Assembly: GCA_030390025.1 (NCBI GenBank)
Contig: JASTWF010000331.1
Location: forward strand, 186,001-250,000
Origin: Squalus acanthias
Lineage: Eukaryota
DNA: 64,000 bases
Direction: 5' to 3'
The notes below the pieces were generated by a model that was not told where the DNA came from, made no database searches, and was given only the letters and a program-made list of their open reading frames with translations. Every line of letters begins with the position of its first letter. The stretch's first letter is position 1. Of the stretch, positions 6,556 to 61,235 are shown in pieces. Made by a program: the position numbers and the translations under genes.

Positions 6556-6597
6556 ATTATTACAGAAAATCAGAATCTTGGAACGCCTATCACCGCC

Positions 6598-6661
6598 ATG
6601 GCTGAAGGTCCAAACAAGGGAGAAGATCCAACATCTTCAACAAGAATGAGAATGGACACAG
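6598..6661 (+). CDS. NLR gene coding exon 1 (MAEGPNKGEDPTSSTRMRMDT; ends phase 1)
   Basis: Acceptor TTACAG at 6565, strong Kozak ACCGCC-ATG-G at 6598, donor CAG|GTAGGT at 6662. Phase matches exon 2. Confidence 0.7.
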
Positions 6662-7149
6662 GTAGGTTCACAAAATTATTTGCAATATAATTTCTGTCCT
6701 GACAAAGGGTCCAGATCGCGCGCAAGAATTTGAAGCTCACACAGGAAGAGGGAACAGGACAGTGGCTGAGTAGAAAGAAGTAAATGACCATGTAGAGTGG
6801 CATCACAGTCACAGGTGGAGGGAGCCCCTGAGTACTGGAACTGTCCAATAGATACCTGGTATTGGGGACTGTAAGGTGGATAAAGACAGTGACTGAGAGG
6901 AGGGTCTTCCTGAGCAGCATTGTGACACCAGAGAGCAGGAGGCCACCCCGAGCGTTGGGTGCAGGAGGTTGAGAACAGTTTCCCACAGGAATAGGAAAAC
7001 GATTTGCTGTCTGATGCTATATATAGCGGAATAGGCTGCTTCTGGTGCCAGAGGGAAGAGCATATTGGACTGGATGAGACCACTTCTTGGAAGACAAGGA
7101 AAGCAGAAAATATTCGCGATCAAAACCAATAACAAATATCGGTTTACTA

Positions 7150-8118
7150 AATGATTTTCGGGACGCATGTGTCGCTGGCAAGGCCAGAATTTACTGGCAA
7201 TCCCTACTTGCCCTTGAATAGGTGCTGTTGGATCGCCTTCCTGAAGCACTGCAATCCACTTGGTGAAGGTGATCCCTCAGTGCTGTTAGGTAGGGAGTTC
7301 CAAGGTTTTGTCATAGTGACAATGAAGGAGTGGCGATGAATTTCAAAGTTAGGATGTTCTGTGGTTTGAAGGGGAAATTGCAGAGGTGGTGGTGCTCCCA
7401 TGCACCTGCTACCCGTGTCCTCCTAGATGGTGGCTATCGTGGGTTTGGGAGGCGCTTTCGAAGACATCTAGGCGAGTTGCTGCAGTGCATCCTGTAGACA
7501 ACACACTGTAGCCACGGTGAGTCAATGGTTGAGGGAGTGAATATTTAACCCAATAGATGCAGTGTCGATCAAGCAGACTGATTTGTCCTGGTTGATGTCG
7601 AGCTTCTTAAGTGTTGTTGCAACTGTACTAATCCAGACAGATAGAGAGCATTCCATCACACTCCTGAACGGTGCCTTATATTTGGTGGAGAGGCTTTGGG
7701 CAGTCAGGAGGTGAGCCACTTGCAGCAGATTAACCAGGCCCTAACAGTGGACAGCGCACTTATGTGGCTGGTTCCGGTTCTATTTCTGGCTAGCTGTAAA
7801 CCCCAGGATTTTGATGTGGTGGACTTGGCGATGGTAATGCCATTAGCTGTCAAGGAGAGGTCGTTATGCTGTCTTGTTGGAGATTGTCATTGCCTGACAC
7901 ATGTGTGGTGCAAATATTATTTGCCACATATCAGCCCAAATCCCAATGTTAACCACGTCTTGCTGCATGCGGTCATGGACTGGTTGATTATCTGAGGAAT
8001 TGCGAATGGAGCCGAAGACATCGTAATCATTATCGAGCAACGCCACTTCTGACCTTATGATGGAGTGAAGGTCATTGTTGAAGAAGCGGGAGATAGTTGG
8101 GTCTAGGATGCACCCCTG
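7150..8118 (-). mobile_element. CR1/L2-group LINE 3' fragment (different family from the other CR1s)
   Basis: Minus-strand peptides DRMQQDVVNIGIWADMWQIIFAPHMCQAMTISNK, YKAPFRSVMECS and RHSFIVTMTKPWNSLPNS. Its 3' tail matches the SINE at 9590-10029. Confidence 0.85.
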
Positions 8119-8129
8119 GTTTGAGGGCT

Positions 8130-9589: not shown

Positions 9590-10029
9590 TTTGTTATTTA
9601 TTCGTACATGGGATGTGGACAAGGCTGGCAAAGCCAGCATTTATTGCTCATCCCTAATTGCCCTTGAAGAAGGTGATGGTGAGCCGCCTTGTTCAACTGA
9701 GTGACTTGCAAGGCGATTTCAGAGGGCATTTAAGGGTCAACCACATTGTTGTGGGTCTGGAGTCACAAAAAGGCCAGACCAGGTAAGGACGGCAAGTTTC
9801 CTTCCCTAAAGGACATTACTGAACCAGATGAGCTTTTACGACAATCAAGTAGATTCATGGTCACCATTACTGATACTAGCTTTCTATTCCAGATCTTTTT
9901 TTAATTTAATAACTGAATTTAAATTCCCCAGCTGCCATGATGGGATTTGAACTCATGTTCCATTCCAGATCATTAGTCCAGGCCTCTGATTTACTCGTCC
10001 AGTAGCATAAACACTATGCTACTCTACTC
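9590..10029 (-). mobile_element. tRNA-derived SINE, DeuSINE/SacSINE1-like
   Basis: Minus strand has an A-box-like TAGCATAGTG (~10012-10021) and a B box GAGTTCAAATCCC (9942-9954). The central GGTGACCATGAA...CTGGTTCAGTAATGTCCTTTAGGGAAGGAAAC core resembles the Deu domain (from recall). LINE-derived tail and A-rich end. Confidence 0.8.
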
Positions 10030-10386
10030 AGCATTTTCTGTTTTTATTTGAAGAAGTTCTGCTCTTCTATCCGATGGGCTTTCTTTTTCTCTCTTTTACC
10101 TTATTTATCTTCATTTATTTCTGTTTCCCTTCTCGTGTTTGATCAGGTATCTACCAAAACTCGCTTTCACAGCCACATATCTTTCTTCAGCAACTGTCCC
10201 CGACTCCCACTTATTCCACCTCGATTTCAATTGAAATTCCACCCTTCATCTTTTGGATTCACCCAGATATCTCCGAGACATTCAGCCGCCCCTCGAGCCA
10301 CTGCTGTCGCCGCATCCTGAGATCCACGCTCAACGCCATGCCCCGCCACAAGCACACTCTCCACCTCTCTCTGCTGAAGCACCGAC

Positions 10387-14920: not shown

Positions 14921-15087
14921 ATCCGAACTCTGCAATCACTGAGTTCTTGAAAAAGTGCAAAGCTTACCAGCTGTTCCAGTTGACGACATTCTACCGGGAC
15001 AGACTGGAACAGGCGATTGAAGAGGGTGTGGACGGAGTCAGCTTGTTGTTAACATACGAGAAGCATTTCAGTGGACAAGAACATCGG
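14921..15087 (+). CDS. NLR gene coding exon 2 (first half of CARD-like domain)
   Basis: Acceptor TTTGTGTTCACAG (14920), donor CGG|GTGAGT (15088); 167 nt, phase 1 to 0. DPNSAITEFLKKCKAYQLFQLTTFYRDRLEQAIEEGVDGVSLLLTYEKHFSGQEHR. Confidence 0.85.
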
Positions 15088-19423: not shown

Positions 19424-19595
19424 AAAGTCTTTGAGCTGACGGAGAAGGGAAACCGGACGGATAGTTCCAAACTTCTCCTAAATCTGGTGATGGAGAAAGG
19501 CTCTGGGGCCCGGAGGGCGATGTGGGAATCCTTTGTGAAAATGCGCCACAGGTTACCAAAGCTGGACAAAATACTGAAAGAAATACAGGAACTTG
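19424..19595 (+). CDS. NLR gene coding exon 3 (second half of CARD-like domain)
   Basis: Acceptor TTCTGTACAG (19423), donor TTG|GTACGG (19596); 172 nt, phase 0 to 1. KVFELTEKGNRTDSSKLLLNLVMEKGSGARRAMWESFVKMRHRLPKLDKILKEIQEL. Confidence 0.85.
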
Positions 19596-19697: not shown

Positions 19698-19763
19698 GTT
19701 TCTTGAGATTTAATGACATGAAGGCCACAGAATGTTTATCCGAAGTTCCCAGTCAGCTGAAAG
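19698..19763 (+). CDS. NLR gene coding exon 4 (66-nt linker)
   Basis: Acceptor TTTAAACAG (19697), donor AAG|GTAGGT (19764); phase 1 to 1. GFLRFNDMKATECLSEVPSQLK. Confidence 0.8.
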
Positions 19764-23100: not shown

Positions 23101-26100
23101 AGTACATTGTGCGCCTGTCCCCCTCTCAGTGCTGGCCAATCAGTACATTGTGAGCCTGCAGCCATCTCAGTGCTGGTCAATCAGTACATTGTGAGCCTGT
23201 CCCTCTCTCAGTGCTGGTCAATCAGTACATTGTGAGCCTGTCCCTCTCTCAGTGCTGCCCAATCAGTAAATTGTGAGTCTGTCCCTCTTTCAGTGCTGGT
23301 CAATCAGTACATTGTGAGTCTGTCCCTCTCTCAGTGCTGCCCAATCAGTACATTGTGAGTCTGTCCCTCTCTCAGTGCTGGTCAATCAGTACATTGTGAG
23401 TCTGTCCCTCTCTCAGTGCTGGTCAATCAGTACATTGTGAGTCTGTCCCTCTCTCAGTGCTGGTCAATCAGTACATTGTGAGCCTGTCCCTCTCTCAGTG
23501 CTGGTCAATCAGTACATTGTGAGTCTGTCCCTCTCTCAGTGCTGGTCAATCAGTACATTGTGAGTCTGTCCCTCTCTCAGTGCTGGTCAATCAGTACATT
23601 GTGAGCCTGTCCCTCTCTCAGTGCTGGTCAATCAGTACATTGTGAGTCTGTCCCTCTCTCAGTGCTGGTCAATCAGTACATTGTGAGCCTGTCCCTCTCT
23701 CAGTGCTGGCCAATCAGTACATTGTGAGCCTGTCCCCCTCTCAGTGCTGGTCAATCAGTACATTGTGAGCCTGTCCCCTCTCAGTGCTGGTCAATCAGTA
23801 CATTGTGAGCCTGTCCCTCTCTCAGTGCTGGTCAATCAGTACATTGTGAGTCTGTCCCTCTCTCAGTGCTGGTCAATCAGTACATTGTGAGTCTGTCCCT
23901 CTCTCAGTGCTGGTCAATCAGTACATTGTGAGTCTGTCCCTCTCTCAGTGCTGGTCAATCAGTACATTGTGAGCCTGTCCCTCTCTCAGTGCTGCCCAAT
24001 CAGTACATTGTGAGTCTGTCCCTCTCTCAGTGCTGTCAATCAGTACATTGTGAGTCTGTCCCTCTCTCAGTGCTGGTCAATCAGTACATTGTGAGTCTGT
24101 CCCTCTCTCAGTGCTGGTCAATCAGTACATTGTGAGTCTGTCCCTCTCTCAGTGCTGGTCAATCAGTACATTGTGAGTCTGTCCCTCTCTCAGTGCTGGT
24201 CAATCAGTACATTGTGAGCCTGTCCCTCTCTCAGTGCTGGTCAATCAGTACATTGTGAGTCTGTCCCTCTCTCAGTGCTGGTCAATCAGTACATTGTGAG
24301 TCTGTCCCTCTCTCAGTGCTGGTCAATCAGTACATTGTGAGTCTGTCCCTCTCTCAGTGCTGGTCAATCAGTACATTGTGAGCCTGTCCCTCTCTCAGTG
24401 CTGGTCAATCAGTACATTGTGAGCCTGTCCCTCTCTCAGTGCTGGTCAATCAGTACATTGTGAGCCTGTCCCTCTCTCAGTGCTGGTCAATCAGTACATT
24501 GTGAGTCTGTCCCTCTCTCAGTGCTGGTCAATCAGTACATTGTGAGCCTGTCCCTCTCTCAGTGCTGGTCAATCAGTACATTGTGAGTCTGTCCCTCTCT
24601 CAGTGCTGTCAATCAGTACATTGTGAGTCTGTCCCTCTCTCAGTGCTGGTCAATCAGTACATTGTGAGCCTGTCCCTCTCTCAGTGCTGGTCAATCAGTA
24701 CATTGTGAGTCTGTCCCTCTCTCAGTGCTGTCAATCAGTACATTGTGAGTCTGTCCCTCTCTCAGTGCTGGTCAATCAGTACATTGTGAGTCTGTCCCTC
24801 TCTCAGTGCTGGTCAATCAGTACATTGTGAGCCTGTCCCTCTCTCAGTGCTGTCAATCAGTACATTGTGAGTCTGTCCCTCTCTCAGTGCTGGTCAATCA
24901 GTACATTGTGAGTCTGTCCCTCTCTCAGAGCTGCCCAATCAGTACATTGTGAGCTGTCCCTCTCTCAGTGCTGGTCAATCAGTACATTGTGAGTCTGTCC
25001 CACTCTCAGTGCTGGCTCAATCAGTACATTGTGAGCCTGTCCCTCTCTCAGGTGCTGGTCAATCAGTACATTGTGAGTCTGTCCCTCTCTCAGTGCTGGT
25101 CAATCAGTACATTGTGAGTCTGTCCCACTCTCAGTGCTGGTCAATCAGTACATTGTGAGCTCTGTCCCTCTCTCAGTGCTGGTCAATCAGTACATTGTGA
25201 GCCTGTCCCTCTCTCAGTGCTGCCCAATCAGTACATTGTTGAGACTGTCCCTCTCTCAGTGCTGGTCAATCAGTACATTGTGAGTCTGTCCCTCTCTCAG
25301 TGCTGGTCAATCAGTACATTGTGAGTCTGTCCCTCTCTCAGTGCTGGCCCAATCAGTACATTGTGAGTCTGTCCCTCTCTCAGTGCTGGTCCAATCAGTA
25401 CATTGTGAGTCTGTCCCTCTCTCAGTGCTGGTCAATCAGTACATTGTGAGCCTGTCCCTCTCTCAGTGCTGGTCAATCAGTACATTGTGAGCCTGTCCCT
25501 CTCTCAGTGCTGGTCAATCAGTACATTGTGAGTCTGTCCCTCTCTCAGTGCTGGTCAATCAGTACATTGTGAGCCTGTCCCTCTCTCAGTGCTGGTCAAT
25601 CAGTACATTGTGAGCCTGTCCCTCTCTCAGTGCTGGTCAATCAGTACATTGTGAGTCTGTCCCTCTCTCAGTGCTGGTCAATCAGTACATTGTGAGTCTG
25701 TCCCTCTCTCAGTGCTGGTCAATCAGTACATTGTGAGTCTGTCCCTCTCTCAGTGCTGGTCAATCAGTACATTGTGAGCCTGTCCCTCTCTCAGTGCTGG
25801 TCAATCAGTACATTGTGAGTCTGTCCCTCTCTCAGTGCTGGTCAATCAGTACATTGTGAGTCTGTCCCTCTCTCAGTGCTGGTCAATCAGTACATTGTGA
25901 GTCTGTCCCTCTCTCAGTGCTGGTCAATCAGTACATTGTGAGCCTGTCCCTCTCTCAGTGCTGGTCAATCAGTACATTGTGAGCCTGTCCCTCTCTCAGT
26001 GCTGGTCAATCAGTACATTGTGAGTCTGTCCCTCTCTCAGTGCTGGTCAATCAGTACATTGTGAGTCTGTCCCTCTCTCAGTGCTGGTCAATCAGTACAT

Positions 26101-44100: not shown

Positions 44101-47100
44101 GCTGGTCAATCAGTACATTGTGAGTCTGTCCCTCTCTCAGTGCTGGTCAATCAGTACATTGTGAGTCTGTCCCTCTCTCAGTGCTGGTCAATCAGTACAT
44201 TGTGAGCCTGTCCCTCTCTCAGTGCTGGTCAATCAGTACATTGTGAGTCTGTCCCTCTCTCAGTGCTGGTCAATCAGTACATTGTGAGTCTGTCCCTCTC
44301 TCAGTGCTGGTCAATCAGTACATTGTGAGTCTGTCCCTCTCTCAGTGCTGGTCAATCAGTACATTGTGAGCCTGTCCCTCTCTCAGTGCTGGTCAATCAG
44401 TACATTGTGAGTCTGTCCCTCTCTCAGTGCTGGTCAATCAGTACATTGTGAGCCTGTCCCTCTCTCAGTGCTGGTCAATCAGTACATTGTGAGTCTGTCC
44501 CTCTCTCAGTGCTGGTCAATCAGTACATTGTGAGTCTGTCCCTCTCTCAGTGCTGGTCAATCAGTACATTGTGAGCCTGTCCCTCTCTCAGTGCTGGTCA
44601 ATCAGTACATTGTGAGTCTGTCCCTCTCTCAGTGCTGGTCAATCAGTACATTGTGAGTCTGTCCCTCTCTCAGTGCTGGTCAATCAGTACATTGTGAGTC
44701 TGTCCCTCTCTCAGTGCTGGTCAATCAGTACATTGTGAGTCTGTCCCTCTCTCAGTGCTGGTCAATCAGTACATTGTGAGTCTGTCCCTCTCTCAGTGCT
44801 GGTCAATCAGTACATTGTGAGCCTGTCCCTCTCTCAGTGCTGGTCAATCAGTACATTGTGAGTCTGTCCCTCTCTCAGTGCTGCCCAATCAGTACATTGT
44901 GAGTCTGTCCCTCTCTCAGTGCTGCCCAATCAGTACATTGTGAGCCTGTCCCTCTCTCAGTGCTGCCCAATCAGTACATTGTGAGACTGTCCCTCTCTCA
45001 GTGCTGATCAATCAGTACATTGTGAGCCTGTCCCTCTCTCAGTGCTGTCAATCAGTACATTGTGAGCCTGTCCCTCTCTCAGTGCTGGTCAATCAGTACA
45101 TTGTGAGTCTGTCCCTCTCTCAGTGCTGCCCAATCAGTACATTGTGAGACTGTCCCTCTCTCAGTGCTGGTCAATCAGTACATTGTGAGTCTGTCCCTCT
45201 CTCAGTGCTGCCCAATCAGTACATTGTGAGACTGTCCCTCTCTCAGTGCTGGTCAATCAGTACATTGTGAGACTGTCCCTCTCTCAGTGCTGGCCAATCA
45301 GTACATTGTGAGTCTGTCCCTCTCTCAGTGCTGCTCAATCAGTACATTGTGAGTCTGTCCCTCTCTCAGTGCTGGCCAATCAGTACATTGTGAGCCTGTC
45401 CCTCTCTCAGTGCTGTCAATCAGTACATTGTGAGCCTGTCCCTCTCTCAGTGCTGGTCAATCAGTACATTGTGAGTCTGTCCCTCTCTCAGTGCTGGCCA
45501 ATCAGTACATTGTGAGCCTGTCCCTCTCTCAGTGCTGGTCAATCAGTACATTGTGAGTCTGTCCCTCTCTCAGTGCTGTCCAATCAGTACATTGTGAGTC
45601 TGTCCCTCTCTCAGTGCTGGTCAATCAGTACATTGTGAGTCTGTCCCTCTCTCAGTGCTGCCAATCAGTACATTGTGAGTCTGTCCCTCTCTCAGTGCTG
45701 GTCAATCAGTACATTGTGAGTCTGTCCCTCTCTCAGTGCTGGTCAATCAGTACATTGTGAGCCTGTCCCTCTCTCAGTGCTGGTCAATCAGTACATTGTG
45801 AGTCTGTCCCTCTCTCAGTGCTGGTCAATCAGTACATTGTGAGCCTGTCCCTCTCTCAGTGCTGCCCAATCAGTACATTGTGAGTCTGTCCCTCTCTCAG
45901 TGCTGCCCAATCAGTACATTGTGAGTCTGTCCCTCTCTCAGTGCTGGTCAATCAGTACATTGTGAGCTGTCCCTCTCTCAGTGCTGCCCAATCAGTACAT
46001 TGTGAGTCTGTCCCTCTCTCAGTGCTGCCCAATCAGTACATTGTGAGCCTGTCCCTCTCTCAGTGCTGCCCAATCAGTACATTGTGAGCCTGTCCCTCTC
46101 TCAGTGCTGGTCAATCAGTACATTGTGAGCCTGTCCCTCTCTCAGTGCTGGTCAATCAGTACATTGTGAGCCTGTCCCTCTCTCAGTGCTGGTCAATCAG
46201 TACATTGTGAGTCTGTCCCTCTCTCAGTGCTGCCCAATCAGTACATTGTGAGACTGTCCCTCTCTCAGTGCTGCTCAATCAGTACATTGTGAGTCTGTCC
46301 CTCTCTCAGTGCTGTCAATCAGTACATTGTGAGTCTGTCCCTCTCTCAGTGCTGCCCAATCAGTACATTGTGAGTCTGTCCCTCTCTCAGTGCTGCCCAA
46401 TCAGTACATTGTGAGTCTGTCCCTCTCTCAGTGCTGTCCAATCAGTACATTGTGAGTCTGTCCCTCTCTCAGTGCTGCCCAATCAGTACATTGTGAGTCT
46501 GTCCCTCTCTCAGTGCTGGTCAATCAGTACATTGTGAGTCTGTCCCTCTCTCAGTGCTGTCAATCAGTACATTGTGAGTCTGTCCCTCTCTCAGTGCTGC
46601 TCAATCAGTACATTGTGAGTCTGTCCCTCTCTCAGTGCTGTCCAATCAGTACATTGTGAGTCTGTCCCTCTCTCAGTGCTGGTCAATCAGTACATTGTGA
46701 GTCTGTCCCTCTCTCAGTGCTGGTCCAATCAGTACATTGTGAGTCTGTCCCTCTCTCAGTGCTGTCAATCAGTACATTGTGAGCCTGTCCCCTCTCAGTG
46801 CTGGTCAATCAGTACATTGTGAGTCTGTCCCTCTCTCAGTGCTGGTCAATCAGTACATTGTGAGTCTGTCCCTCTCTCAGTGCTGGTCAATCAGTACATT
46901 GTGAGTCTGTCCCTCTCTCAGTGCTGCCCAATCAGTACATTGTGAGTCTGTCCCTCTCTCAGTGCTGCCAATCAGTACATTGTGAGCCTGTCCCTCTCTC
47001 AGTGCTGCCCAATCAGTACATTGTGAGCCTGTCCCTCTCTCAGTGCTGCCCAATCAGTACATTGTGAGCCTGTCCCTCTCTCAGTGCTGCCAATCAGTAC

Positions 47101-50100
47101 ATTGTGAGCCTGTCCCTCTCTCAGTGCTGCCAATCAGTACATTGTGAGCCTGTCCCTCTCTCAGTGCTGTCAATCAGTACATTGTGAGTCTGTCCCTCTC
47201 TCAGTGCTGCCAATCAGTACATTGTGAGTCTGTCCCTCTCTCAGTGCTGCCAATCAGTACATTGTGAGTCTGTCCCTCTCTCAGTGCTGCCAATCAGTAC
47301 ATTGTGAGTCTGTCCCTCTCTCAGTGCTGCCAATCAGTACATTGTGAGTCTGTCCCTCTCTCAGTGCTGCCCAATCAGTACATTGTGAGCCTGTCCCTCT
47401 CTCAGTGCTGCCAATCAGTACATTGTGAGTCTGTCCCTCTCTCAGTGCTGTCCAATCAGTACATTGTGAGCCTGTCCCTCTCTCAGTGCTGCCCAATCAG
47501 TACATTGTGAGTCTGTCCCTCTCTCAGTGCTGCCAATCAGTACATTGTGAGCCTGTCCCTCTCTCAGTGCTGCCAATCAGTACATTGTGAGCCTGTCCCT
47601 CTCTCAGTGCTGCCAATCAGTACATTGTGAGTCTGTCCCTCTCTCAGTGCTGGTCAATCAGTACATTGTGAGTCTGTCCCTCTCTCAGTGCTGGTCAATC
47701 AGTACATTGTGAGTCTGTCCCTCTCTCAGTGCTGCCAATCAGTACATTGTGAGTCTGTCCCTCTCTCAGTGCTGCCAATCAGTACATTGTGAGCCTGTCC
47801 CTCTCTCAGTGCTGTCAATCAGTACATTGTGAGTCTGTCCCTCTCTCAGTGCTGCCCAATCAGTACATTGTGAGCCTGTCCCTCTCTCAGTGCTGGTCAA
47901 TCAGTACATTGTGAGCCTGTCCCTCTCTCAGTGCTGGTCAATCAGTACATTGTGAGTCTGTCCCTCTCTCAGTGCTGCCCAATCAGTACATTGTGAGTCT
48001 GTCCCTCTCTCAGTGCTGCTCAATCAGTACATTGTGAGTCTGTCCCTCTCTCAGTGCTGGTCAATCAGTACATTGTGAGCCTGTCCCTCTCTCAGTGCTG
48101 TCAATCAGTACATTGTGAGTCTGTCCCTCTCTCAGTGCTGGCAATCAGTACATTGTGAGTCTGCCCCTCTCTCAGTGCTGGCCAATCAGTACATTGTGAG
48201 TCTGTCCCTCTCTCAGTGCTGTCAATCAGTACATTGTGAGCCTGTCCCTCTCTCAGTGCTGGTCAATCAGTACATTGTGAGCCTGTCCCTCTCTCAGTGC
48301 TGGTCAATCAGTACATTGTGAGCCTGTCCCTCTCTCAGTGCTGGTCAATCAGTACATTGTGAGTCTGTCCCTCTCTCAGTGCTGGTCAATCAGTACATTG
48401 TGAGTCTGTCCCTCTCTCAGTGCTGCCAATCAGTACATTGTGAGTCTGTCCCTCTCTCAGTGCTGTCAATCAGTACATTGTGAGCCTGTCCCTCTCTCAG
48501 TGCTGTCAATCAGTACATTGTGAGCCTGTCCCTCTCTCAGTGCTGCCAATCAGTACATTGTGAGTCTGTCCCTCTCTCAGTGCTGCCAATCAGTACATTG
48601 TGAGTCTGTCCCTCTCTCAGTGCTGCCAATCAGTACATTGTGAGCCTGTCCCTCTCTCAGTGCTGTCAATCAGTACATTGTGAGTCTGTCCCTCTCTCAG
48701 TGCTGCCAATCAGTACATTGTGAGTCTGTCCCTCTCTCAGTGCTGCCAATCAGTACATTGTGAGTCTGTCCCTCTCTCAGTGCTGCCAATCAGTACATTG
48801 TGAGTCTGTCCCTCTCTCAGTGCTGTCCAATCAGTACATTGTGAGCCTGTCCCTCTCTCAGTGCTGCCCAATCAGTACATTGTGAGTCTGTCCCTCTCTC
48901 AGTGCTGCCCAATCAGTACATTGTGAGTCTGTCCCTCTCTCAGTGCTGCCCAATCAGTACATTGTGAGCCTGTCCCTCTCTCAGTGCTGTCAATCAGTAC
49001 ATTGTGAGTCTGTCCCTCTCTCAGTGCTGCCCAATCAGTACATTGTGAGTCTGTCCCTCTCTCAGTGCTGTCCAATCAGTACATTGTGAGCCTGTCCCTC
49101 TCTCAGTGCTGCCCAATCAGTACATTGTGAGCCTGTCCCTCTCTCAGTGCTGCCCAATCAGTACATTGTGAGTCTGTCCCTCTCTCAGTGCTGGTCAATC
49201 AGTACATTGTGAGTCTGTCCCTCTCTCAGTGCTGGTCAATCAGTACATTGTGAGCCTGTCCCTCTCTCAGTGCTGCCCAATCAGTACATTGTGAGTCTGT
49301 CCCTCTCTCAGTGCTGCCCAATCAGTACATTGTGAGTCTGTCCCTCTCTCAGTGCTGCCCAATCAGTACATTGTGAGTCTGTCCCTCTCTCAGTGCTGGT
49401 CAATCAGTACATTGTGAGCCTGTCCCTCTCTCAGTGCTGGTCAATCAGTACATTGTGAGCCTGTCCCTCTCTCAGTGCTGGTCAATCAGTACATTGTGAG
49501 TCTGTCCCTCTCTCAGTGCTGGTCAATCAGTACATTGTGAGCCTGTCCCCTCTCAGTGCTGTCAATCAGTACATTGTGAGTCTGTCCCTCTCTCAGTGCT
49601 GCCCAATCAGTACATTGTGAGTCTGTCCCTCTCTCAGTGCTGGTCAATCAGTACATTGTGAGTCTGTCCCTCTCTCAGTGCTGCCCAATCAGTACATTGT
49701 GAGTCTGTCCCTCTCTCAGTGCTGGTCAATCAGTACATTGTGAGTCTGTCCCTCTCTCAGTGCTGGTCCAATCAGTACATTGTGAGTCTGTCCCTCTCTC
49801 AGTGCTGCTCAATCAGTACATTGTGAGTCTGTCCCTCTCTCAGTGCTGTCAATCAGTACATTGTGAGCCTGTCCCTCTCTCAGTGCTGGTCAATCAGTAC
49901 ATTGTGAGTCTGTCCCTCTCTCAGTGCTGTCAATCAGTACATTGTGAGTCTGTCCCTCTCTCAGTGCTGGTCAATCAGTACATTGTGAGCCTGTCCCTCT
50001 CTCAGTGCTGCCAATCAGTACATTGTGAGTCTGTCCCTCTCTCAGTGCTGTCCAATCAGTACATTGTGAGTCTGTCCCTCTCTCAGTGCTGCCCAATCAG

Positions 50101-53100
50101 TACATTGTGAGTCTGTCCCTCTCTCAGTGCTGTCAATCAGTACATTGTGAGCCTGTCCCTCTCTCAGTGCTGGTCAATCAGTACATTGTGAGCCTGTCCC
50201 TCTCTCAGTGCTGGTCAATCAGTACATTGTGAGCCTGTCCCTCTCTCAGTGCTGGTCAATCAGTACATTGTGAGTCTGTCCCTCTCTCAGTGCTGCCCAA
50301 TCAGTACATTGTGAGCCTGTCCCTCTCTCAGTGCTGTCAATCAGTACATTGTGAGTCTGTCCCTCTCTCAGTGCTGCCCAATCAGTACATTGTGAGCCTG
50401 TCCCTCTCTCAGTGCTGCCCAATCAGTACATTGTGAGTCTGTCCCTCTCTCAGTGCTGCCAATCAGTACATTGTGAGCCTGTCCCTCTCTCAGTGCTGAC
50501 CAATCAGTACATTGTGAGTCTGTCCCTCTCTCAGTGCTGCCCAATCAGTACATTGTGAGCCTGTCCCTCTCTCAGTGCTGCTCAATCAGTACATTGTGAG
50601 TCTGTCCCTCTCTCAGTGCTGCCCAATCAGTACATTGTGAGTCTGTCCCTCTCTCAGTGCTGTCAATCAGTACATTGTGAGTCTGTCCCTCTCTCAGTGC
50701 TGCCAATCAGTACATTGTGAGTCTGTCCCTCTCTCAGTGCTGTCAATCAGTACATTGTGAGCCTGTCCCTCTCTCAGTGCTGTCAATCAGTACATTGTGA
50801 GTCTGTCCCTCTCTCAGTGCTGTCAATCAGTACATTGTGAGTCTGTCCCTCTCTCAGTGCTGCCAATCAGTACATTGTGAGTCTGTCCCTCTCTCAGTGC
50901 TGCCAATCAGTACATTGTGAGTCTGTCCCTCTCTCAGTGCTGCCCAATCAGTACATTGTGAGCCTGTCCCTCTCTCAGTGCTGCCCAATCAGTACATTGT
51001 GAGTCTGTCCCTCTCTCAGTGCTGCCCAATCAGTACATTGTGAGCCTGTCCCTCTCTCAGTGCTGTCCAATCAGTACATTGTGAGCCTGTCCCTCTCTCA
51101 GTGCTGCCAATCAGTACATTGTGAGTCTGTCCCTCTCTCAGTGCTGGTCAATCAGTACATTGTGAGCCTGTCCCTCTCTCAGTGCTGTCCAATCAGTACA
51201 TTGTGAGTCTGTCCCTCTCTCAGTGCTGCCCAATCAGTACATTGTGAGTCTGTCCCTCTCTCAGTGCTGCCAATCAGTACATTGTGAGTCTGTCCCTCTC
51301 TCAGTGCTGCCCAATCAGTACATTGTGAGCCTGTCCCTCTCTCAGTGCTGCCAATCAGTACATTGTGAGTCTGTCCCTCTCTCAGTGCTGTCAATCAGTA
51401 CATTGTGAGTCTGTCCCTCTCTCAGTGCTGGTCAATCAGTACATTGTGAGTCTGTCCCTCTCTCAGTGCTGGTCAATCAGTACATTGTGAGCCTGTCCCT
51501 CTCTCAGTGCTGTCAATCAGTACATTGTGAGTCTGTCCCTCTCTCAGTGCTGCCAATCAGTACATTGTGAGTCTGTCCCTCTCTCAGTGCTGGTCAATCA
51601 GTACATTGTGAGTCTGTCCCTCTCTCAGTGCTGGTCAATCAGTACATTGTGAGTCTGTCCCTCTCTCAGTGCTGCCAATCAGTACATTGTGAGTCTGTCC
51701 CTCTCTCAGTGCTGGTCAATCAGTACATTGTGAGACTGTCCCTCTCTCAGTGCTGGTCAATCAGTACATTGTGAGCCTGTCCCTCTCTCAGTGCTGGTCA
51801 ATCAGTACATTGTGAGTCTGTCCCTCTCTCAGTGCTGGTCAATCAGTACATTGTGAGCCTGTCCCTCTCTCAGTGCTGGTCAATCAGTACATTGTGAGTC
51901 TGTCCCTCTCTCAGTGCTGTCAATCAGTACATTGTGAGCCTGTCCCTCTCTCAGTGCTGGTCAATCAGTACATTGTGAGCCTGTCCCTCTCTCAGTGCTG
52001 CCCAATCAGTACATTGTGAGTCTGTCCCTCTCTCAGTGCTGTCAATCAGTACATTGTGAGTCTGTCCCTCTCTCAGTGCTGCCCAATCAGTACATTGTGA
52101 GCCTGTCCCTCTCTCAGTGCTGCCAATCAGTACATTGTGAGTCTGTCCCTCTCTCAGTGCTGCCAATCAGTACATTGTGAGTCTGTCCCTCTCTCAGTGC
52201 TGCCCAATCAGTACATTGTGAGCCTGTCCCTCTCTCAGTGCTGGTCAATCAGTACATTGTGAGCCTGTCCCTCTCTCAGTGCTGGTCAATCAGTACATTG
52301 TGAGCCTGTCCCTCTCTCAGTGCTGGTCAATCAGTACATTGTGAGTCTGTCCCTCTCTCAGTGCTGCCAATCAGTACATTGTGAGCCTGTCCCTCTCTCA
52401 GTGCTGCCAATCAGTACATTGTGAGCCTGTCCCTCTCTCAGTGCTGCCAATCAGTACATTGTGAGCCTGTCCCTCTCTCAGTGCTGCCCAATCAGTACAT
52501 TGTGAGCCTGTCCCTCTCTCAGTGCTGCCAATCAGTACATTGTGAGTCTGTCCCTCTCTCAGTGCTGCCCAATCAGTACATTGTGAGACTGTCCCTCTCT
52601 CAGTGCTGCCCAATCAGTACATTGTGAGTCTGTCCCTCTCTCAGTGCTGCCAATCAGTACATTGTGAGCTGTCCCTCTCTCAGTGCTGCCAATCAGTACA
52701 TTGTGAGTCTGTCCCTCTCTCAGTGCTGCCAATCAGTACATTGTGAGTCTGTCCCTCTCTCAGTGCTGCCCAATCAGTACATTGTGAGTCTGTCCCTCTC
52801 TCAGTGCTGCCAATCAGTACATTGTGAGCCTGTCCCTCTCTCAGTGCTGGCCAATCAGTACATTGTGAGCCTGTCCCTCTCTCAGTGCTGGTCAATCAGT
52901 ACATTGTGAGTCTGTCCCTCTCTCAGTGCTGGTCCAATCAGTACATTGTGAGTCTGTCCCTCTCTCAGTGCTGTCCAATCAGTACATTGTGAGCCTGTCC
53001 CTCTCTCAGTGCTGGTCAATCAGTACATTGTGAGCCTGTCCCTCTCTCAGTGCTGGTCAATCAGTACATTGTGAGTCTGTCCCTCTCTCAGTGCTGGTCA

Positions 53101-56100
53101 ATCAGTACATTGTGAGCCTGTCCCTCTCTCAGTGCTGGTCAATCAGTACATTGTGAGTCTGTCCCTCTCTCAGTGCTGGTCAATCAGTACATTGTGAGCC
53201 TGTCCCTCTCTCAGTGCTGGTCAATCAGTACATTGTGAGTCTGTCCCTCTCTCAGTGCTGGTCAATCAGTACATTGTGAGTCTGTCCCTCTCTCAGTGCT
53301 GGTCAATCAGTACATTGTGAGCCTGTCCCTCTCTCAGTGCTGTCAATCAGTACATTGTGAGTCTGTCCCTCTCTCAGTGCTGGCCAATCAGTACATTGTG
53401 AGTCTGTCCCTCTCTCAGTGCTGCCAATCAGTACATTGTGAGCCTGTCCCTCTCTCAGTGCTGCCCAATCAGTACATTGTGAGTCTGTCCCTCTCTCAGT
53501 GCTGTCAATCAGTACATTGTGAGTCTGTCCCTCTCTCAGTGCTGGTCAATCAGTACATTGTGAGTCTGTCCCTCTCTCAGTGCTGGTCAATCAGTACATT
53601 GTGAGCCTGTCCCTCTCTCAGTGCTGGTCAATCAGTACATTGTGAGCCTGTCCCTCTCTCAGTGCTGCCCAATCAGTACATTGTGAGTCTGTCCCTCTCT
53701 CAGTGCTGCCCAATCAGTACATTGTGAGTCTGTCCCTCTCTCAGTGCTGCCCAATCAGTACATTGTGAGCCTGTCCCTCTCTCAGTGCTGCCAATCAGTA
53801 CATTGTGAGCCTGTCCCTCTCTCAGTGCTGCCCAATCAGTACATTGTGAGCCTGTCCCTCTCTCAGTGCTGCCCAATCAGTACATTGTGAGTCTGTCCCT
53901 CTCTCAGTGCTGGTCAATCAGTACATTGTGAGCCTGTCCCTCTCTCAGTGCTGTCAATCAGTACATTGTGAGCCTGTCCCTCTCTCAGTGCTGCCCAATC
54001 AGTACATTGTGAGTCTGTCCCTCTCTCAGTGCTGCCCAATCAGTACATTGTGAGTCTGTCCCTCTCTCAGTGCTGCCCAATCAGTACATTGTGAGCCTGT
54101 CCCTCTCTCAGTGCTGTCAATCAGTACATTGTGAGCCTGTCCCTCTCTCAGTGCTGCCAATCAGTACATTGTGAGCCTGTCCCTCTCTCAGTGCTGTCAA
54201 TCAGTACATTGTGAGTCTGTCCCTCTCTCAGTGCTGCCCAATCAGTACATTGTGAGTCTGTCCCTCTCTCAGTGCTGGTCAATCAGTACATTGTGAGTCT
54301 GTCCCTCTCTCAGTGCTGCCCAATCAGTACATTGTGAGTCTGTCCCTCTCTCAGTGCTGGCCAATCAGTACATTGTGAGCCTGTCCCTCTCTCAGTGCTG
54401 GTCAATCAGTACATTGTGAGTCTGTCCCTCTCTCAGTGCATGCCAATCAGTACATTGTGAGTCTGTCCCTCTCTCAGTGCTGGTCCAATCAGTACATTGT
54501 GAGCCTGTCCCTCTCTCAGTGCTGGTCAATCAGTACATTGTGAGTCTGTCCCTCTCTCAGTGCTGGTCAATCAGTACATTGTGAGTCTGTCCCTCTCTCA
54601 GTGCTGGTCAATCAGTACATTGTGAGTCTGTCCCTCTCTCAGTGCTGCTCAATCAGTACATTGTGAGTCTGTCCCTCTCTCAGTGCTGGTCAATCAGTAC
54701 ATTGTGAGTCTGTCCCTCTCTCAGTGCTGGTCAATCAGTACATTGTGAGTCTGTCCCTCTCTCAGTGCTGGTCAATCAGTACATTGTGAGTCTGTCCCTC
54801 TCTCAGTGCTGGTCAATCAGTACATTGTGAGTCTGTCCCTCTCTCAGTGCTGGTCAATCAGTACATTGTGAGCCTGTCCCTCTCTCAGTGCTGGCCAATC
54901 AGTACATTGTGAGTCTGTCCCTCTCTCAGTGCTGGTCAATCAGTACATTGTGAGACTGTCCCTCTCTCAGTGCTGGTCAATCAGTACATTGTGAGTCTGT
55001 CCCTCTCTCAGTGCTGGTCAATCAGTACATTGTGAGTCTGTCCCTCTCTCAGTGCTGGTCAATCAGTACATTGTGAGTCTGTCCCTCTCTCAGTGCTGGT
55101 CAATCAGTACATTGTGAGCCTGTCCCTCTCTCAGTGCTGGTCAATCAGTACATTGTGAGTCTGTCCCTCTCTCAGTGCTGTTCAATCAGTACATTGTGAG
55201 TCTGTCCCTCTCTCAGTGCTGGTCAATCAGTACATTGTGAGTCTGTCCCTCTCTCAGTGCTGGTCAATCAGTACATTGTGAGTCTGTCCCTCTCTCAGTG
55301 CTGGTCAATCAGTACATTGTGAGCCTGTCCCTCTCTCAGTGCTGCCCAATCAGTACATTGTGAGTCTGTCCCTCTCTCAGTGCTGCCCAATCAGTACATT
55401 GTGAGTCTGTCCCTCTCTCAGTGCTGCCCAATCAGTACATTGTGAGCCTGTCCCTCTCTCAGTGCTGGTCAATCAGTACATTGTGAGCCTGTCCCTCTCT
55501 CAGTGCTGCCCAATCAGTACATTGTGAGCCTGTCCCTCTCTCAGTGCTGCCCAATCAGTACATTGTGAGTCTGTCCCTCTCTCAGTGCTGTCAATCAGTA
55601 CATTGTGAGTCTGTCCCTCTCTCAGTGCTGGTCAATCAGTACATTGTGAGCCTGTCCCTCTCTCAGTGCTGCCCAATCAGTACATTGTGAGTCTGTCCCT
55701 CTCTCAGTGCTGCCCAATCAGTACATTGTGAGTCTGTCCCTCTCTCAGTGCTGCCCAATCAGTACATTGTGAGTCTGTCCCTCTCTCAGTGCTGGTCAAT
55801 CAGTACATTGTGAGCCTGTCCCTCTCTCAGTGCTGGTCAATCAGTACATTGTGAGCCTGTCCCTCTCTCAGTGCTGCCCAATCAGTACATTGTGAGTCTG
55901 TCCCTCTCTCAGTGCTGCCCAATCAGTACATTGTGAGTCTGTCCCTCTCTCAGTGCTGGTCAATCAGTACATTGTGAGTCTGTCCCTCTCTCAGTGCTGC
56001 CCAATCAGTACATTGTGAGTCTGTCCCTCTCTCAGTGCTGGTCAATCAGTACATTGTGAGTCTGTCCCTCTCTCAGTGCTGGTCAATCAGTACATTGTGA

Positions 56101-59100
56101 GTCTGTCCCTCTCTCAGTGCTGCCCAATCAGTACATTGTGAGTCTGTCCCTCTCTCAGTGCTGGTCAATCAGTACATTGTGAGCCTGTCCCTCTCTCAGT
56201 GCTGGTCAATCAGTACATTGTGAGTCTGTCCCTCTCTCAGTGCTGGTCAATCAGTACATTGTGAGTCTGTCCCTCTCTCAGTGCTGCCAATCAGTACATT
56301 GTGAGCCTGTCCCTCTCTCAGTGCTGTCAATCAGTACATTGTGAGTCTGTCCCTCTCTCAGTGCTGGTCAATCAGTACATTGTGAGTCTGTCCCTCTCTC
56401 AGTGCTGGTCAATCAGTACATTGTGAGTCTGTCCCTCTCTCAGTGCTGCTCAATCAGTACATTGTGAGTCTGTCCCTCTCTCAGTGCTGGTCAATCAGTA
56501 CATTGTGAGTCTGTCCCTCTCTCAGTGCTGGTCAATCAGTACATTGTGAGTCTGTCCCTCTCTCAGTGCTGGTCAATCAGTACATTGTGAGTCTGTCCCT
56601 CTCTCAGTGCTGGTCAATCAGTACATTGTGAGTCTGTCCCTCTCTCAGTGCTGGTCAATCAGTACATTGTGAGCCTGTCCCCCTCTCAGTGCTGGTCAAT
56701 CAGTACATTGTGAGTCTGTCCCTCTCTCAGTGCTGGTCAATCAGTACATTGTGAGACTGTCCCTCTCTCAGTGCTGGTCAATCAGTACATTGTGAGTCTG
56801 TCCCTCTCTCAGTGCTGGTCAATCAGTACATTGTGAGTCTGTCCCTCTCTCAGTGCTGGTCAATCAGTACATTGTGAGTCTGTCCCTCTCTCAGTGCTGG
56901 TCAATCAGTACATTGTGAGCCTGTCCCTCTCTCAGTGCTGGTCAATCAGTACATTGTGAGTCTGTCCCTCTCTCAGTGCTGGTCAATCAGTACATTGTGA
57001 GCCTGTCCCTCTCTCAGTGCTGGTCAATCAGTACATTGTGAGTCTGTCCCTCTCTCAGTGCTGCCCAATCAGTACATTGTGAGCCTGTCCCTCTCTCAGT
57101 GCTGGTCAATCAGTACATTGTGAGTCTGTCCCTCTCTCAGTGCTGCCCAATCAGTACATTGTGAGACTGTCCCTCTCTCAGTGCTGCTCAATCAGTACAT
57201 TGTGAGTCTGTCCCTCTCTCAGTGCTGGTCAATCAGTACATTGTGAGCCTGTCCCCTCTCAGTGCTGGTCAATCAGTACATTGTGAGTCTGTCCCTCTCT
57301 CAGTGCTGGTCAATCAGTACATTGTGAGTCTGTCCCTCTCTCAGTGCTGGTCAATCAGTACATTGTGAGCCTGTCCCTCTCTCAGTGCTGGTCAATCAGT
57401 ACATTGTGAGTCTGTCCCTCTCTCAGTGCTGGTCAATCAGTACATTGTGAGTCTGTCCCTCTCTCAGTGCTGGTCAATCAGTACATTGTGAGTCTGTCCC
57501 TCTCTCAGTGCTGATCAATCAGTACATTGTGAGTCTGTCCCTCTCTCAGTGCTGGTCAATCAGTACATTGTGAGTCTGTCCCTCTCTCAGTGCTGGTCAA
57601 TCAGTACATTGTGAGTCTGTCCCTCTCTCAGTGCTGGTCAATCAGTACATTGTGAGTCTGTCCCTCTCTCAGTGCTGGTCAATCAGTACATTGTGAGTCT
57701 GTCCCTCTCTCAGTGCTGGTCAATCAGTACATTGTGAGCCTGTCCCCTCTCAGTGCTGGTCAATCAGTACATTGTGAGTCTGTCCCTCTCTCAGTGCTGG
57801 TCAATCAGTACATTGTGAGACTGTCCCTCTCTCAGTGCTGGTCAATCAGTACATTGTGAGTCTGTCCCTCTCTCAGTGCTGGTCAATCAGTACATTGTGA
57901 GTCTGTCCCTCTCTCAGTGCTGGTCAATCAGTACATTGTGAGTCTGTCCCTCTCTCAGTGCTGGTCAATCAGTACATTGTGAGCCTGTCCCTCTCTCAGT
58001 GCTGGTCAGTCAGTACATTGTGAGTCTGTCCCTCTCTCAGTGCTGGTCAATCAGTACATTGTGAGCCTGTCCCTCTCTCAGTGCTGGTCAATCAGTACAT
58101 TGTGAGTCTGTTCCTCTCTCTGTGCTGCCCAATCAGTACATTGTGAGCCTGTCCCTCTCTCAGTGCTGGTCAATCAGTACATTGTGAGTCTGTCTCTCTC
58201 TCTCTGTGCTGCCCAATCAGTACATTGTGAGACTGTCCCTCTCTCAGTGCTGATCAATCAGTACATTGTGAGTCTGTCCCTCTCTCAGTGCTGATCAATC
58301 AGTACATTGTGAGTCTGTCCCTCTCTCAGTGCTGCCCAATCAGTACATTGTGAGTCTGTCCCTCTCTCAGTGCTGGTCAATCAATACATTGTGAGTCTGT
58401 CCCTCTCTCAGTGCTGATCAATCAGTACATTGTGAGTCTGTCCCTCTCTCAGTGCTGGTCAATCAGTACATAGTGAGCCTGTCCCTCTCTCAGTGCTGGT
58501 CAGTCACTACATTGTGAGTCTGTCCCTCTCTCAGTGCTGGTCAGTCAGTACATTGTGAGTCTGTCCCTCTCTCAGTGCTGGTCAATCAGTACATTGTGAG
58601 TCTGTCCCTCTCTCAGTGCTGGTCAATCAGTACATTGTGAGTCTGTCCCTCTCTCAGTGCTGGTCAATCAGTACATTGTGAGCCTGTCCCCCTCTCAGTG
58701 CTGGTCAATCAGTACATTGTGAGTCTGTCCCTCTCTCAGTGCTGGTCAATCAGTACATTGTGAGTCTGTCCCTCACTCAGTGCTGGTCAATCACTACATT
58801 GTGAGTCTGTCCCTCTCTCAGTGCTGGTCAGTCAGTACATTGTGAGTCTGTCCCTCTCTCAGTGCTGGTCAATCAGTACATTGTGAGTCTGTCCCTCACT
58901 CAGTGCTGGTCAATCAGTACATTGTGAGACTGTCCCTCTCTCAGTGCTGGTCAATCAGTACATTGTGAGCCTGTCCCTCTCTCAGTGCTGGTCAATCAGT
59001 ACATTGTGAGTCTGTCCCTCTCTCAGTGCTGGTCAATCAGTACATTGTGAGCCTGTCCCTCTCTCAGTGTTGGTCAATCAGTAAATTGTGAGTCTGTCCC

Positions 59101-59119
59101 TCTCTCAGTGCTGCCCAAT
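23101..59119. repeat. 41-bp tandem satellite, ~36 kb, ~880 copies: AATCAGTACATTGTGAG(T/C)CTGTCCCTCTCTCAGTGCTG(GT/CC)C
   Basis: Uninterrupted head-to-tail array with no spacers or TE insertions seen. Copy number estimated as length/41. Confidence 0.99.
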
Positions 59120-59497
59120 TCCCGATTTGCTGTTTGTTCTAGCGCTCCGCTCTGCTGGGTGGGAGTTTCAATCATTTATCCATTATTACGACTACAGCCT
59201 TATAACCAGAATCACCTGTGGATTTGTAATGTGATGTCTGCAGTAAATTGTGTGACAGATAGTTTTCACCATCAGAAAGAACATTTGTCCTTCTCCCAGC
59301 TCGCCATGTTAAGTAAATATTGGTGTCCCATGTAGATTTGGAACTTCTCTCAGACATTTCCTGTCAACCAAGATTCACATGAACTGTTTTGGTTTTCTAA
59401 CTGTCTACGATTTTACTGAAAAGCAGTGCAGTATATCGGAGCTTTCTGTGACAATATAATGAACATTGAAACCACTTTCTCTCTGTTCTAATTGAAG

Positions 59498-61235
59498 ATC
59501 TTCAACAGAAACACAAGGAAACACTCCGGGTACAAACTGAAACACTGAGAGTGAACACTATCCTAATAAAGGAGAAGGTTAAGATTTTTCAGCTGGTTGA
59601 TCGATACGCTAAGCTGACGGTCATTTCTTCTGTTCGAGATCGGACACTTGTAGAACATGAACTGCTGGCAAGAGGCCGAGACCATGAAGAGTGCAGAAAG
59701 AAACTCCTCCGGAAAAGGCTGGAAAAAATCCGAACTGATCAATTGTTCCACAGCAGTTTTTCACGGAGAAAGTCCAAATCTGGGAATTCAGGAGCAGTGA
59801 GCGGAGTCCCGGGGATTGGAAAAACAACAATGGTACAAAAGATTGTTCATGACTGGGCCACTGGGAAAATATACCCACACTTTCAATTTGTTTTCAGCTT
59901 TAAATTCCGGGATTTGAACGCTATTAACTGTAGAATAAACCTGAGGAATCTGATACTCTTTTTTTATCCTTACTTGAGCAATATTCTGGGAGAGCTCTGG
60001 AAGAACCCAGAGGGATTGCTGTTTATATTCGATGGTTTGGATGAATTCAATGAGAGTATCGATTTTGCTGACAATCGGAGAAATACAGAACCTCAGCACA
60101 TGTGCACAGATCCTGAAGACTGGTGTGAAGTGTCTGACATTGTGTACAGTTTAATACAGCACAAGCTGCTCCCAGGATGTTCAGTGCTAGTGACCAGCCG
60201 CCCCACTGCATTACATTTATTGCAAAAGGCTGATATCAGTGTCTGGGCTGAAATCCTGGGATTTGTTGGAAAAGAACGGAAGGAATATTTCAACAAGTTT
60301 TTTGAAGATCAGACGGTGGCAGCAGCTGTTTTCAAACACGTGGAGGAGAACGACATCCTGTACACCATGTGCTACAACCCTTCTTACTGCTTGATCCTCG
60401 GCCTCTCACTGGGCCCCTTCTTTACACAAAGAGACAGGAATCAGCAGCGAGTTCCCAAGACCATCACCCAATTATATTCCTACTATATTTACAACATTCT
60501 GAAAAACCATGGCCGAGAGATTGAAAGCCCCCGTGATGTGTTACTGAATCTTGGTGAGATGGCCTTCACAGGAGTCTCCGAGAAGAAGATTGTGTTTAAA
60601 AATGGAGAATTGATCAAGTACAATCTGCAACCTTCCCAGTTCCTGTCTGGGTTCATGATGGAACTTTTGGAGAGAGATGATTCTGCCCAGAGCGTGGTGT
60701 ACACATTCCCGCACCTCACCATCCAAGAGTTTGTAGCCGCACTAGCACAATTCCTGACTCCAGATCCCGGGGACATCCTGAAACTCCTCCGGGAATCCCA
60801 CGGCAAGGAAGATGGGCGATTTGAGATATTTCTCCGTTTTGTTGCTGGTCTCTCCTCCCCACAGGCAGCTCGGCCCCTGGAGGAGTTTCTGGGTCCATTT
60901 CTTCATCAAACCACCTGCCGAGTGATTGACTGGGTGAAGGAGAAGATTGAAGGACAGATTGGGAACACAGGGAGTGAAACTGGGAAAAGGAACCTCCTGA
61001 ACACATTCCACTACCTGTTTGAGTCTCAGAATAAAGGTCTGGCTCGGAAAACAGTGGGATCTGTGGAATCACTTACATTTAGTGGATTGACATTGACCCC
61101 GATTGACTGTGCGGTCCTGTCTCACGTCATTGGACTCTGTGATACAATAAAAGAACTCGATCTAGAGAGCTGCAACATTCAGTGTGAGGGACTCCAGCGG
61201 CTGGGACCCGTACTGCACAAATGCCAGGTGTTGAG
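59498..61235 (+). CDS. NLR gene coding exon 5: NACHT NTPase, winged helix, HD2 and first LRR (NLRC3/NLRP-like family; gene presumably continues beyond the window)
   Basis: Acceptor TTCTAATTGAAG (59497, phase 1); 1738 nt open. Walker A GVPGIGKT (59803-59826), Walker B LLFIFDGLDE (60016-60045), sensor-1 LVTSRP, WH motif FPHLTIQEFVAA, LRR IKELDLESCNI. Phase-2 donor AG|GTAAC at 61236. Confidence 0.96.

Follow-up and report, generated by a model that had tools for sequence, protein, structure and literature searches.

A 64,000-nucleotide stretch of the Squalus acanthias genome (GenBank assembly GCA_030390025.1, contig JASTWF010000331.1, positions 186,001 to 250,000 of the forward strand; hereafter the window) contains the first five coding exons of an 11-exon open-frame gene, which encodes a 1020-amino-acid shark NLR with a predicted CARD, a NACHT module and leucine-rich repeats (LRRs). 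The gene is an ordinary single-CARD member of an NLR expansion that has already been described in sharks. We give about an even chance to the reading that its product is a cytosolic sensor that would recruit caspase-1 through its CARDs once these have oligomerised.

Exon organisation and reading frame

A preliminary description of the window had proposed a CARD-like NACHT-LRR receptor between positions 6598 and 61235. Its five exons were reproduced, with AG and GT at the exon borders, GT..AG at every intron, phases of 1,0,1,1,2 and a sum of 2207 nt that gives 735 codons without a stop, and both peptides quoted in it were found. The proposed domains were present as well, whereas the LRR part lies almost wholly outside that range, in six more exons situated 3.5–5.1 kb beyond the window end (Table 1). 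The completed model has 11 coding exons, and its protein is 77.5% identical end to end to the Heptranchias perlo homolog P0002, besides one extra 57-amino-acid LRR unit. The last exon stops after the LRRs and no B30.2 domain lies within this reading frame. The spliced residues 1–165 are matched by 103 of 120 database homologs (69 of the 120 over residues 1–160), the best at 79% identity without gaps, which argues that the five-exon model is no chance assembly. The boundaries of exons 3 and 4 are repeated in all 10 loci examined, the window copy being one of the 10. Pfam matches on exon 5 are all above cut-off (NACHT, E 3e-35; HD2, 9e-17; winged helix, 5e-13), and the Walker A, Walker B, sensor-1 and winged-helix motifs are intact in the 1020-amino-acid frame; the names of the exon 5 motifs are those that we take to apply from established NLR knowledge.

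The ATG at 6598 stands in the context ACCGCCATGG, and the protein of the window copy begins MAEG. An acceptor precedes this ATG by 32 nt, a layout seen in 23 of 25 loci examined, and its presence at 6566 implies a further upstream exon. Across 23 loci the 10 codons upstream of the ATG show similar proportions of nonsynonymous (pN, 0.070) and synonymous (pS, 0.075) differences together with one stop, which indicates no coding constraint and makes the ATG at 6598 the probable start. The additional exon is probably untranslated, and its position was not located: a search of the window and the 40 kb upstream with 89 N-terminal extensions, aimed at an upstream coding exon or transmembrane (TM) segment, returned only the 32-nt pre-ATG stretch and repeat-like or off-target matches. 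TM-like segments occur only in the distant relatives P0135, P0224 and P0230, which form a separate clade, and the unlocated exon leaves a small gap in this respect for the window copy. Nine relatives (P0003, P0106, P0116, P0122, P0136, P0147, P0157, P0166 and P0225) have MGxxxS/C-type starts, which resemble what we take to be the pattern of N-myristoylation signals.

Table 1. Coordinates of the gene and of associated features (window positions unless a contig is named).
Feature	Position	Strand	Remarks
Coding exon 1	6566..6661	+	acceptor at 6566; 32 nt probably untranslated; 64 nt from ATG at 6598; 21-aa variable tail
Coding exon 2	14921..15087	+	167 nt; extra N-terminal helix and first half of predicted CARD
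Coding exon 3	19424..19595	+	172 nt; second half of predicted CARD, behind phase-0 intron
Coding exon 4	19698..19763	+	66 nt; 22-aa linker; same peptide type in paralogues L003 and L004
Coding exon 5	59498..61235	+	1738 nt; FISNA-like segment, NACHT, winged helix, HD2, first LRR
NACHT in exon 5 (Pfam)	59797-60309	+	Walker A 59803-59826; Walker B 60016-60045; sensor-1 60184-60201
Winged helix in exon 5	60535-60708	+	HD2 at 60712-61047
Start of intron 5	61236..64000	+	extends beyond window end, up to six LRR exons
Six LRR exons, outside window	G000:C2573:253534-255119 (L011:3534-5119)	+	87, 171, 171, 171, 168, 88 nt; TAA end
Upstream block common to paralogues	4430..4712	+	GAAAGGAAA, reverse CCAAT and CACGTG motifs (names presumed); candidate promoter
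41-bp satellite	23101..59113	.	~881 copies, 95% matches, inside intron 4

Splice joins in related species

Joins were read from contigs of probable RNA runs of related species, at an 85% likeness threshold. These contigs reproduce the joins 6661–14921 (X5), 15087–19424 (X1 and X5) and 19595–19698 (X1). They also link exon-4-like sequence to 59498, the junction with 19763 on which the preliminary description had staked its model, in that the loose ends before 59497 (X9) and 59495 (X5) correspond to the last part of exon 4. Behind 61235, the contigs of X1, X5 and X9 have loose ends that resemble the start of an LRR exon. As judged by likeness between species, the contigs support the exon plan of the family and not the expression of the window copy.

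Two other kinds of join were seen in X5. In three contigs, the NACHT exon's end runs back into its beginning (59496–61233, going back 1738, at a depth of 428), which in this related species might represent a circular RNA of the whole NACHT exon or else a tandem duplication of it. A single contig connects exon-4-like sequence with an internal AG, at 61053–54 (site 61053–61055). Such a join would leave out NACHT while keeping the frame (1557 nt), and the product would be a CARD-LRR isoform. All of the 14 intact copies have this AG, but without a pyrimidine tract.

A predicted CARD at the N terminus

Exons 2 and 3 had been described as encoding a CARD-like domain that is split by a phase-0 intron, and structural models bear out both points. 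The models were folded from homologs, namely residues 20–140 of P0002 (78% identical to the window over residues 1–165) and P0256 (A0A4W3GKU6) of Callorhinchus milii. The P0002 model has seven helices and a predicted local distance difference test score (pLDDT) of 90, and the phase-0 intron that divides the CARD falls within the predicted helix 54–65. Comparison of this model with 48,161 chains in VIA-align placed the NLRC4 CARD first (Z 11.5, root-mean-square deviation (rmsd) 2.7, 89 aligned), followed by zebrafish ASC (11.1), caspase-1 (11.1; rmsd 1.8, 88 aligned), ARC (11.1) and CARD8 (11.1). Ranks 1–34 are all CARD-containing chains except for one de novo design, and the best death domain has a Z of 7.5, so that the N-terminal peptide does have a clear death-fold match by way of its homologs. 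The best Foldseek rows were likewise the ARC, NLRC4, CARD8 and caspase-1 CARDs, with ARC first (rmsd 1.2 over 72–75 columns), and the ESM Atlas returned CARD clusters at the top at 0.88, which serves as a lead only. The C. milii domain (pLDDT 93) again matched CARDs, at Z 12.2–11.5. The first helix (4–14) lies mostly outside the structural matches, and for this reason the N-terminal domain is described as a predicted CARD with one extra helix.

Profile methods gave far smaller signals. Pfam PF00619 was matched below cut-off only, in 5 of 13 members (best E 9e-4) and in 7 of 20 (best E 7e-5); there was no Pfam death-fold match for exon 3 alone or for three full-length homologs, and no PYRIN match on the homologs. 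Because the CARD matches stay below the cut-off, the domain goes unnoticed in annotation and the genes receive names taken from PYD proteins, and the 'PYD domains' of the RefSeq name is misleading for a domain that is modelled as a CARD. A sub-cut-off Pfam score does not outweigh the CARD fold. Profile searches of PDB sequences with the domain found nothing significant for any CARD, and ICEBERG (E 0.86) was the only natural CARD that matched the family profile. Profile comparison of the domain gave weak scores with the genome's own caspase-1-like CARD (probability 15%) and NLRC4-like CARD (1%), and the newt domain alone as a query returned itself only. The window has a single exon 2/exon 3 pair and the 40 kb upstream has none, so that there is no tandem CARD cassette.

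An expanded NLRP-related family

Against solved structures, the NACHT exon scores 174 bits with NLRP3, 130 with NLRP6, 107 with NLRP1 and 80 with 5irm, which we take to be the NOD2 entry; the NLRP3 alignment begins upstream of NACHT, and NLRC4 is not among the 38 solved-structure matches. The LRRs, on exons of 171 nt, match ribonuclease inhibitor and NLRPs. As judged by sequence likeness, an NLRP-type NACHT and ribonuclease-inhibitor-type LRRs are present and an N-terminal PYD is not. The view of the preliminary description that the gene is not obviously NOD2 or NLRC4 agrees with these scores and with the presence of a separate NLRC4-like gene on C12, whose CARD lies in one exon.

The 120 best database matches of exon 5 are all shark or ray models at 80–89% identity, nearly all of them named NLRP3-like or NLRP12-like. 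Genome searches returned 442 candidates with exon 3 (150 of 150 scored were significant, at 81–100% identity) and 485 with the NACHT core (150 of 150 scored were significant, at 90–100% identity), with many of the copies from both searches on C7 and C29. The NACHT copies with 90% identity or higher number at least 150, counted without removing haplotype duplicates, in keeping with the lineage-expanded family that had been suspected. A quick tree of 36 NACHT cores, rooted at the midpoint, places the window in a 13-row shark/ray clade (Shimodaira–Hasegawa-like approximate likelihood ratio test (SH-aLRT) 100), joins the amphibian and lungfish rows in a clade of their own (100) among the chondrichthyan rows and sets the NLRC4-like L152 far from the window copy. 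This tree contains no PYD-NLRP, so that the relation to true NLRPs lies outside its scope.

A profile of the N-terminal domain retrieved 110 representatives, among them lungfish, caecilian and newt NLRs. Eleven proteins were treated as C. milii, of which 9 bear that name; three have the whole domain, three have part of it and five have none, and the five models without it look N-terminally short. The closest described relatives are elasmobranch RefSeq/UniRef models named 'NACHT, LRR and PYD domains-containing protein 3-like', namely P0002 (H. perlo), P0031 (Pristiophorus japonicus) and P0019 (Mustelus asterias), which share with the window gene 80–89% identity over exon 5, up to 79% over residues 1–165, an equal domain order and one clade (SH-aLRT 100). 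The window copy differs from the 963-aa models by an additional LRR unit of 57 aa and by the 36-kb satellite in its intron 4. Outside the family, another CARD-NACHT gene was seen on a long branch (L148:5843-7519, minus strand; G000:C25, ~10.36 Mb), with its CARD at L123.

The accessible text of Tan et al. 2021 (PMC8455134) describes an NLRP-related family, apparently novel and expanded in the whale shark, with 17 entries and suggests it as a source of inflammasome activators, and Billman et al. 2024 (PMC11258412), likewise as far as accessible, state that the NLRP3-like proteins of sharks carry a CARD at the N terminus. The families of these two papers share with the window gene an NLRP-related NACHT, a shark expansion, the N-terminal CARD and a proposed inflammasome role. 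Published members number 17 and 21, compared with the at least 150 scored NACHT copies among 485 candidates found here, counted without removing haplotype duplicates; relative to what is accessible of both papers, the present analysis adds structure, exon layout and LRR variability. The whale-shark protein P0316 (XP_048459341.1) carries the domain and sits in the clade of the window gene; it comes from a later annotation and is outside the paper's 17 accessions. The preliminary description was right to call the function of the gene uncharacterised and overstated its novelty, since the RefSeq annotation exists and the accessible parts of these papers already report the whale-shark expansion (PMC8455134) and the CARD (PMC11258412).

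Selection and LRR variability

For exon 5 the ratio pN/pS is 0.45 (14 intact copies), for exon 3 it is 0.41 (10 loci), and as far as sequence comparison goes the NACHT exon and exon 3 are under purifying selection. For the LRRs, 78 exons were captured. After removal of 5 duplicates, 5 mis-captured matches that contained an intron and 1 exon with a stop, 67 distinct 171-nt exons from 27 loci were left. Nine exposed concave positions, which were set from the LRR consensus after the per-site table had been seen, have a mean entropy of 1.62 bits compared with 0.28 elsewhere, a difference that 0 of 100,000 permutations reach among copies that are not independent. Moreover, pN is 0.30 at the concave positions, 0.049 elsewhere and 0.041 in the intervening introns. 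By these sequence measures, the concave face of the LRRs is hypervariable.

Candidate signalling partners in the genome

The genome contains, on C25, a caspase-1-like CARD (E 1e-9) with a QACRG exon ~12 kb downstream, an ASC/NLRP1/CARD8-type CARD and, at L118, a candidate CARD that we take to be RIPK2-like. PYD matches number 11 genome-wide, with 0 of the 11 at the window locus. Eight related PYD exons lie at G000:C7:141.95-144.49 Mb and on C3741 (L186-L188, L190-L193), seven of them inside the C7 NLR cluster, and no NACHT match was found behind four of the eight in the stretches fetched. CARD exons that are nearly identical to one another and most resemble ARC/NOL3 (E 1.5e-9) occur at least 11 times, at G000:C21:12.1-13.3 Mb and on C3389, C378 and C3703 (L132-L142, L176, L181). 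URGCP-like GTPase exons stand behind both of the two that were examined, which points to an expanded CARD-very-large-GTPase family. The C21 cluster was considered as a partner and set aside, since it precedes URGCP-like GTPase exons and nothing connects it to the window gene.

Repeats, upstream block and neighbouring sequences

A single satellite array (23101–59113) makes up 36 of the gene's 55 kb. Across the genome, a stretch of 34 bases from this array is matched exactly at 2716 places, and its reversed control at 0. Among the first 100 places listed, several are situated just ahead of paralogue NACHT exons, and shorter arrays of the 41-bp unit precede the NACHT exon in paralogues. The upstream block at 4430..4712 is matched in 11–12 of 16 paralogue upstream regions per 100-bp bin, and its motifs are ones that we take to be GAAAGGAAA, reverse CCAAT and CACGTG elements.

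The first 3199 nt of the window are a 49-bp G-rich tandem array (~66 copies) that continues upstream and is the source of long proline-rich minus-strand frames. Decayed retroelement fragments occur in the introns, with RVT_1 at 10472–11053 and GIY-YIG at 62490–63023 within a fragment at 62100–63400, and two others are placed by likeness only (12100–14400 and 21858–22832). A neighbouring paralogue is convergent to the window gene, on the minus strand at G000:C2573:346.5-398.5 kb (L020-L025); an 18-bp satellite with a flanking stretch lies between the two genes in an inverted arrangement. A GPCR-like sequence also lies between them (L016:5440-5625; G000:C2573, ~305.5 kb). The models P0303 (C. 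milii, PF00001) and P0180 fuse GPCR-like sequence to an NLR and are probably mis-joined neighbours.

Discussion

How might such a receptor signal? The CARD fold is predicted from homologs, and the signalling cycle proposed here is modelled on the biology of NLRP3 and NLRC4. A trigger would be sensed at the variable face of the LRRs, which would release autoinhibition; ADP would be swapped for ATP and the NACHTs would oligomerise; the clustered CARDs would then seed caspase-1 filaments, directly or via the CARD of ASC, and caspase-1 would lead to cleavage of the IL-1 family and gasdermin. In background terms, NLRP3 is a PYD-bearing, ASC-dependent and single-copy receptor. Human and mouse NLRP3 provide the best solved-structure match of the NACHT exon and have ribonuclease-inhibitor-type LRRs in common with the window gene. 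NLRC4 shares the CARD-NACHT-LRR layout, is the top structural match of the CARD and offers direct caspase-1 recruitment as a working model, but it is no orthologue, being missing from the 38 NACHT matches and having its own NLRC4-like gene on C12. The large clustered NLR-C/NLR-B30.2 expansion of zebrafish (bioRxiv 10.1101/022061, in the part accessible) is comparable in kind; it is separate from the shark one according to the accessible text of PMC8455134, and the window gene has no B30.2 in its reading frame.

Several results weigh against a caspase-1-recruiting sensor. For neither the shark nor the C. milii model did any Foldseek match reach E 0.001, and a Z below ~13 is, by the tool's own note, not unusual among helical bundles. 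The NLRC4, ASC, caspase-1, ARC, CARD8 and NOD1 CARD matches are tied within 1 Z, so that the fold does not name a signalling partner, and the assignment of the window copy's CARD comes from homolog models and not from a fold of its own sequence. No PYD-CARD linkage that would make a complete ASC gene was found in the genomic stretches fetched. The splice joins were read in related species, from runs that we guess to be RNA; no RNA run of the window copy was found, the best share of exon 5 words being 0.48, and this gives no evidence on expression. At the concave LRR codons pS is also high (0.22), and for this reason positive selection at these positions is only suggested. Finally, among the 30 nearest NACHT exons, the window's included, 17 are free of stops and frameshifts and 13 are disrupted, and the window copy has private changes at conserved columns (E195K, W222C, K507N and D527E).

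The last two observations also bear on the possibility, which we regard as unlikely, that the window gene is a silent or decaying copy whose frame is open and which was taken out of use by the 36-kb satellite, a repeat in the upstream block and the private substitutions. Consistent with this, an open frame of at least 580 aa is found in 101 of the 150 scored copies, the upstream block is interrupted by ~530 nt at 4713–5246, and the 40 kb between exon 3 and NACHT is the longest such distance among 24 hand-paired copies (median 5.6 kb). However, each of the 11 exons is open, the splice sites are canonical and the motifs intact, the neighbouring convergent paralogue also has a large satellite in the same intron (39-bp unit, 36 kb from exon 3 to NACHT), and some of the 1-bp indels in paralogues may be assembly errors.

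Somewhat more doubtful still is a receptor of the NOD1/NOD2 kind, whose CARD would recruit RIPK2 and drive NF-kB/MAPK transcription instead of caspase-1. The layout of a single N-terminal CARD, NACHT and LRRs equals that of NOD1 as generally established, the NOD1 and RIP2 CARDs are matched at Z 10.8–12.0 and 9.2–11.1, and the candidate CARD at L118 is presumably RIPK2-like. However, the NACHT is much nearer to NLRP3 than to NOD2 (174 versus 80 bits), the LRRs match ribonuclease inhibitor and NLRPs, and the whale shark has distinct NOD1 and NOD2 genes in the accessible text of PMC8455134. We consider equally doubtful a negative regulator or decoy like NLRC3, NLRP12 or the CARD-only inhibitors, in which the CARD, possibly capped by the extra helix, would sequester caspases or adaptors: the inhibitor ARC is the top Foldseek match, ICEBERG alone among natural CARDs matches the family profile, and one relative's contig suggests the in-frame NACHT-skipping isoform, but the ARC match is tied with activating CARDs, and hundreds of candidate copies with a variable LRR face would better fit the recognition of diverse triggers.

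A wider reading, to which we attach distinctly less confidence than to a caspase-1-recruiting sensor at this locus, is that these genes represent an ancient jawed-vertebrate family of CARD-bearing NLRP-type receptors, with a CARD that has one extra helix and is hidden from domain searches, that persisted in elephant shark, lungfish, caecilians and newts and expanded here to hundreds of hypervariable-LRR receptors wired directly to caspase-1 without ASC. A 2026 preprint (10.64898/2026.07.03.736391), in its accessible part, reports 98 NLRs in C. milii with no CARD-containing NLR, no ASC and no canonical inflammasome, and it also reports caspase-1/GSDMA/B pyroptosis for a cartilaginous fish. A 2024 paper, as far as accessible, reports no N-terminal domain in lungfish NLRs. 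The putative CARD detected here in C. milii and lungfish NLRs is at odds with these published absences, although the lungfish protein examined there may differ. In a literature search that left subscription journals and some supplements outside, we found no functional study of the family and no report of a CARD in its C. milii, lungfish or amphibian members. If the wider reading is true, the family supplies the canonical ASC-independent inflammasome sensors reported missing in C. milii.

As a single gene, the window copy is of limited importance, since it belongs to a very large family for which both the expansion and the CARD have already been published. The point added here is the apparent CARD, below the Pfam cut-off, in elephant shark, lungfish, caecilian and newt NLRs, and its detectability in C. 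milii, lungfish and amphibian proteins makes a direct link between NLR and caspase-1 testable in these animals. In this genome the family exceeds the numbers published for other sharks at least several-fold. Given this size and the variation on what is usually the ligand-binding face of the LRRs, sharks may keep a large germline repertoire of sensors beside their adaptive immunity.

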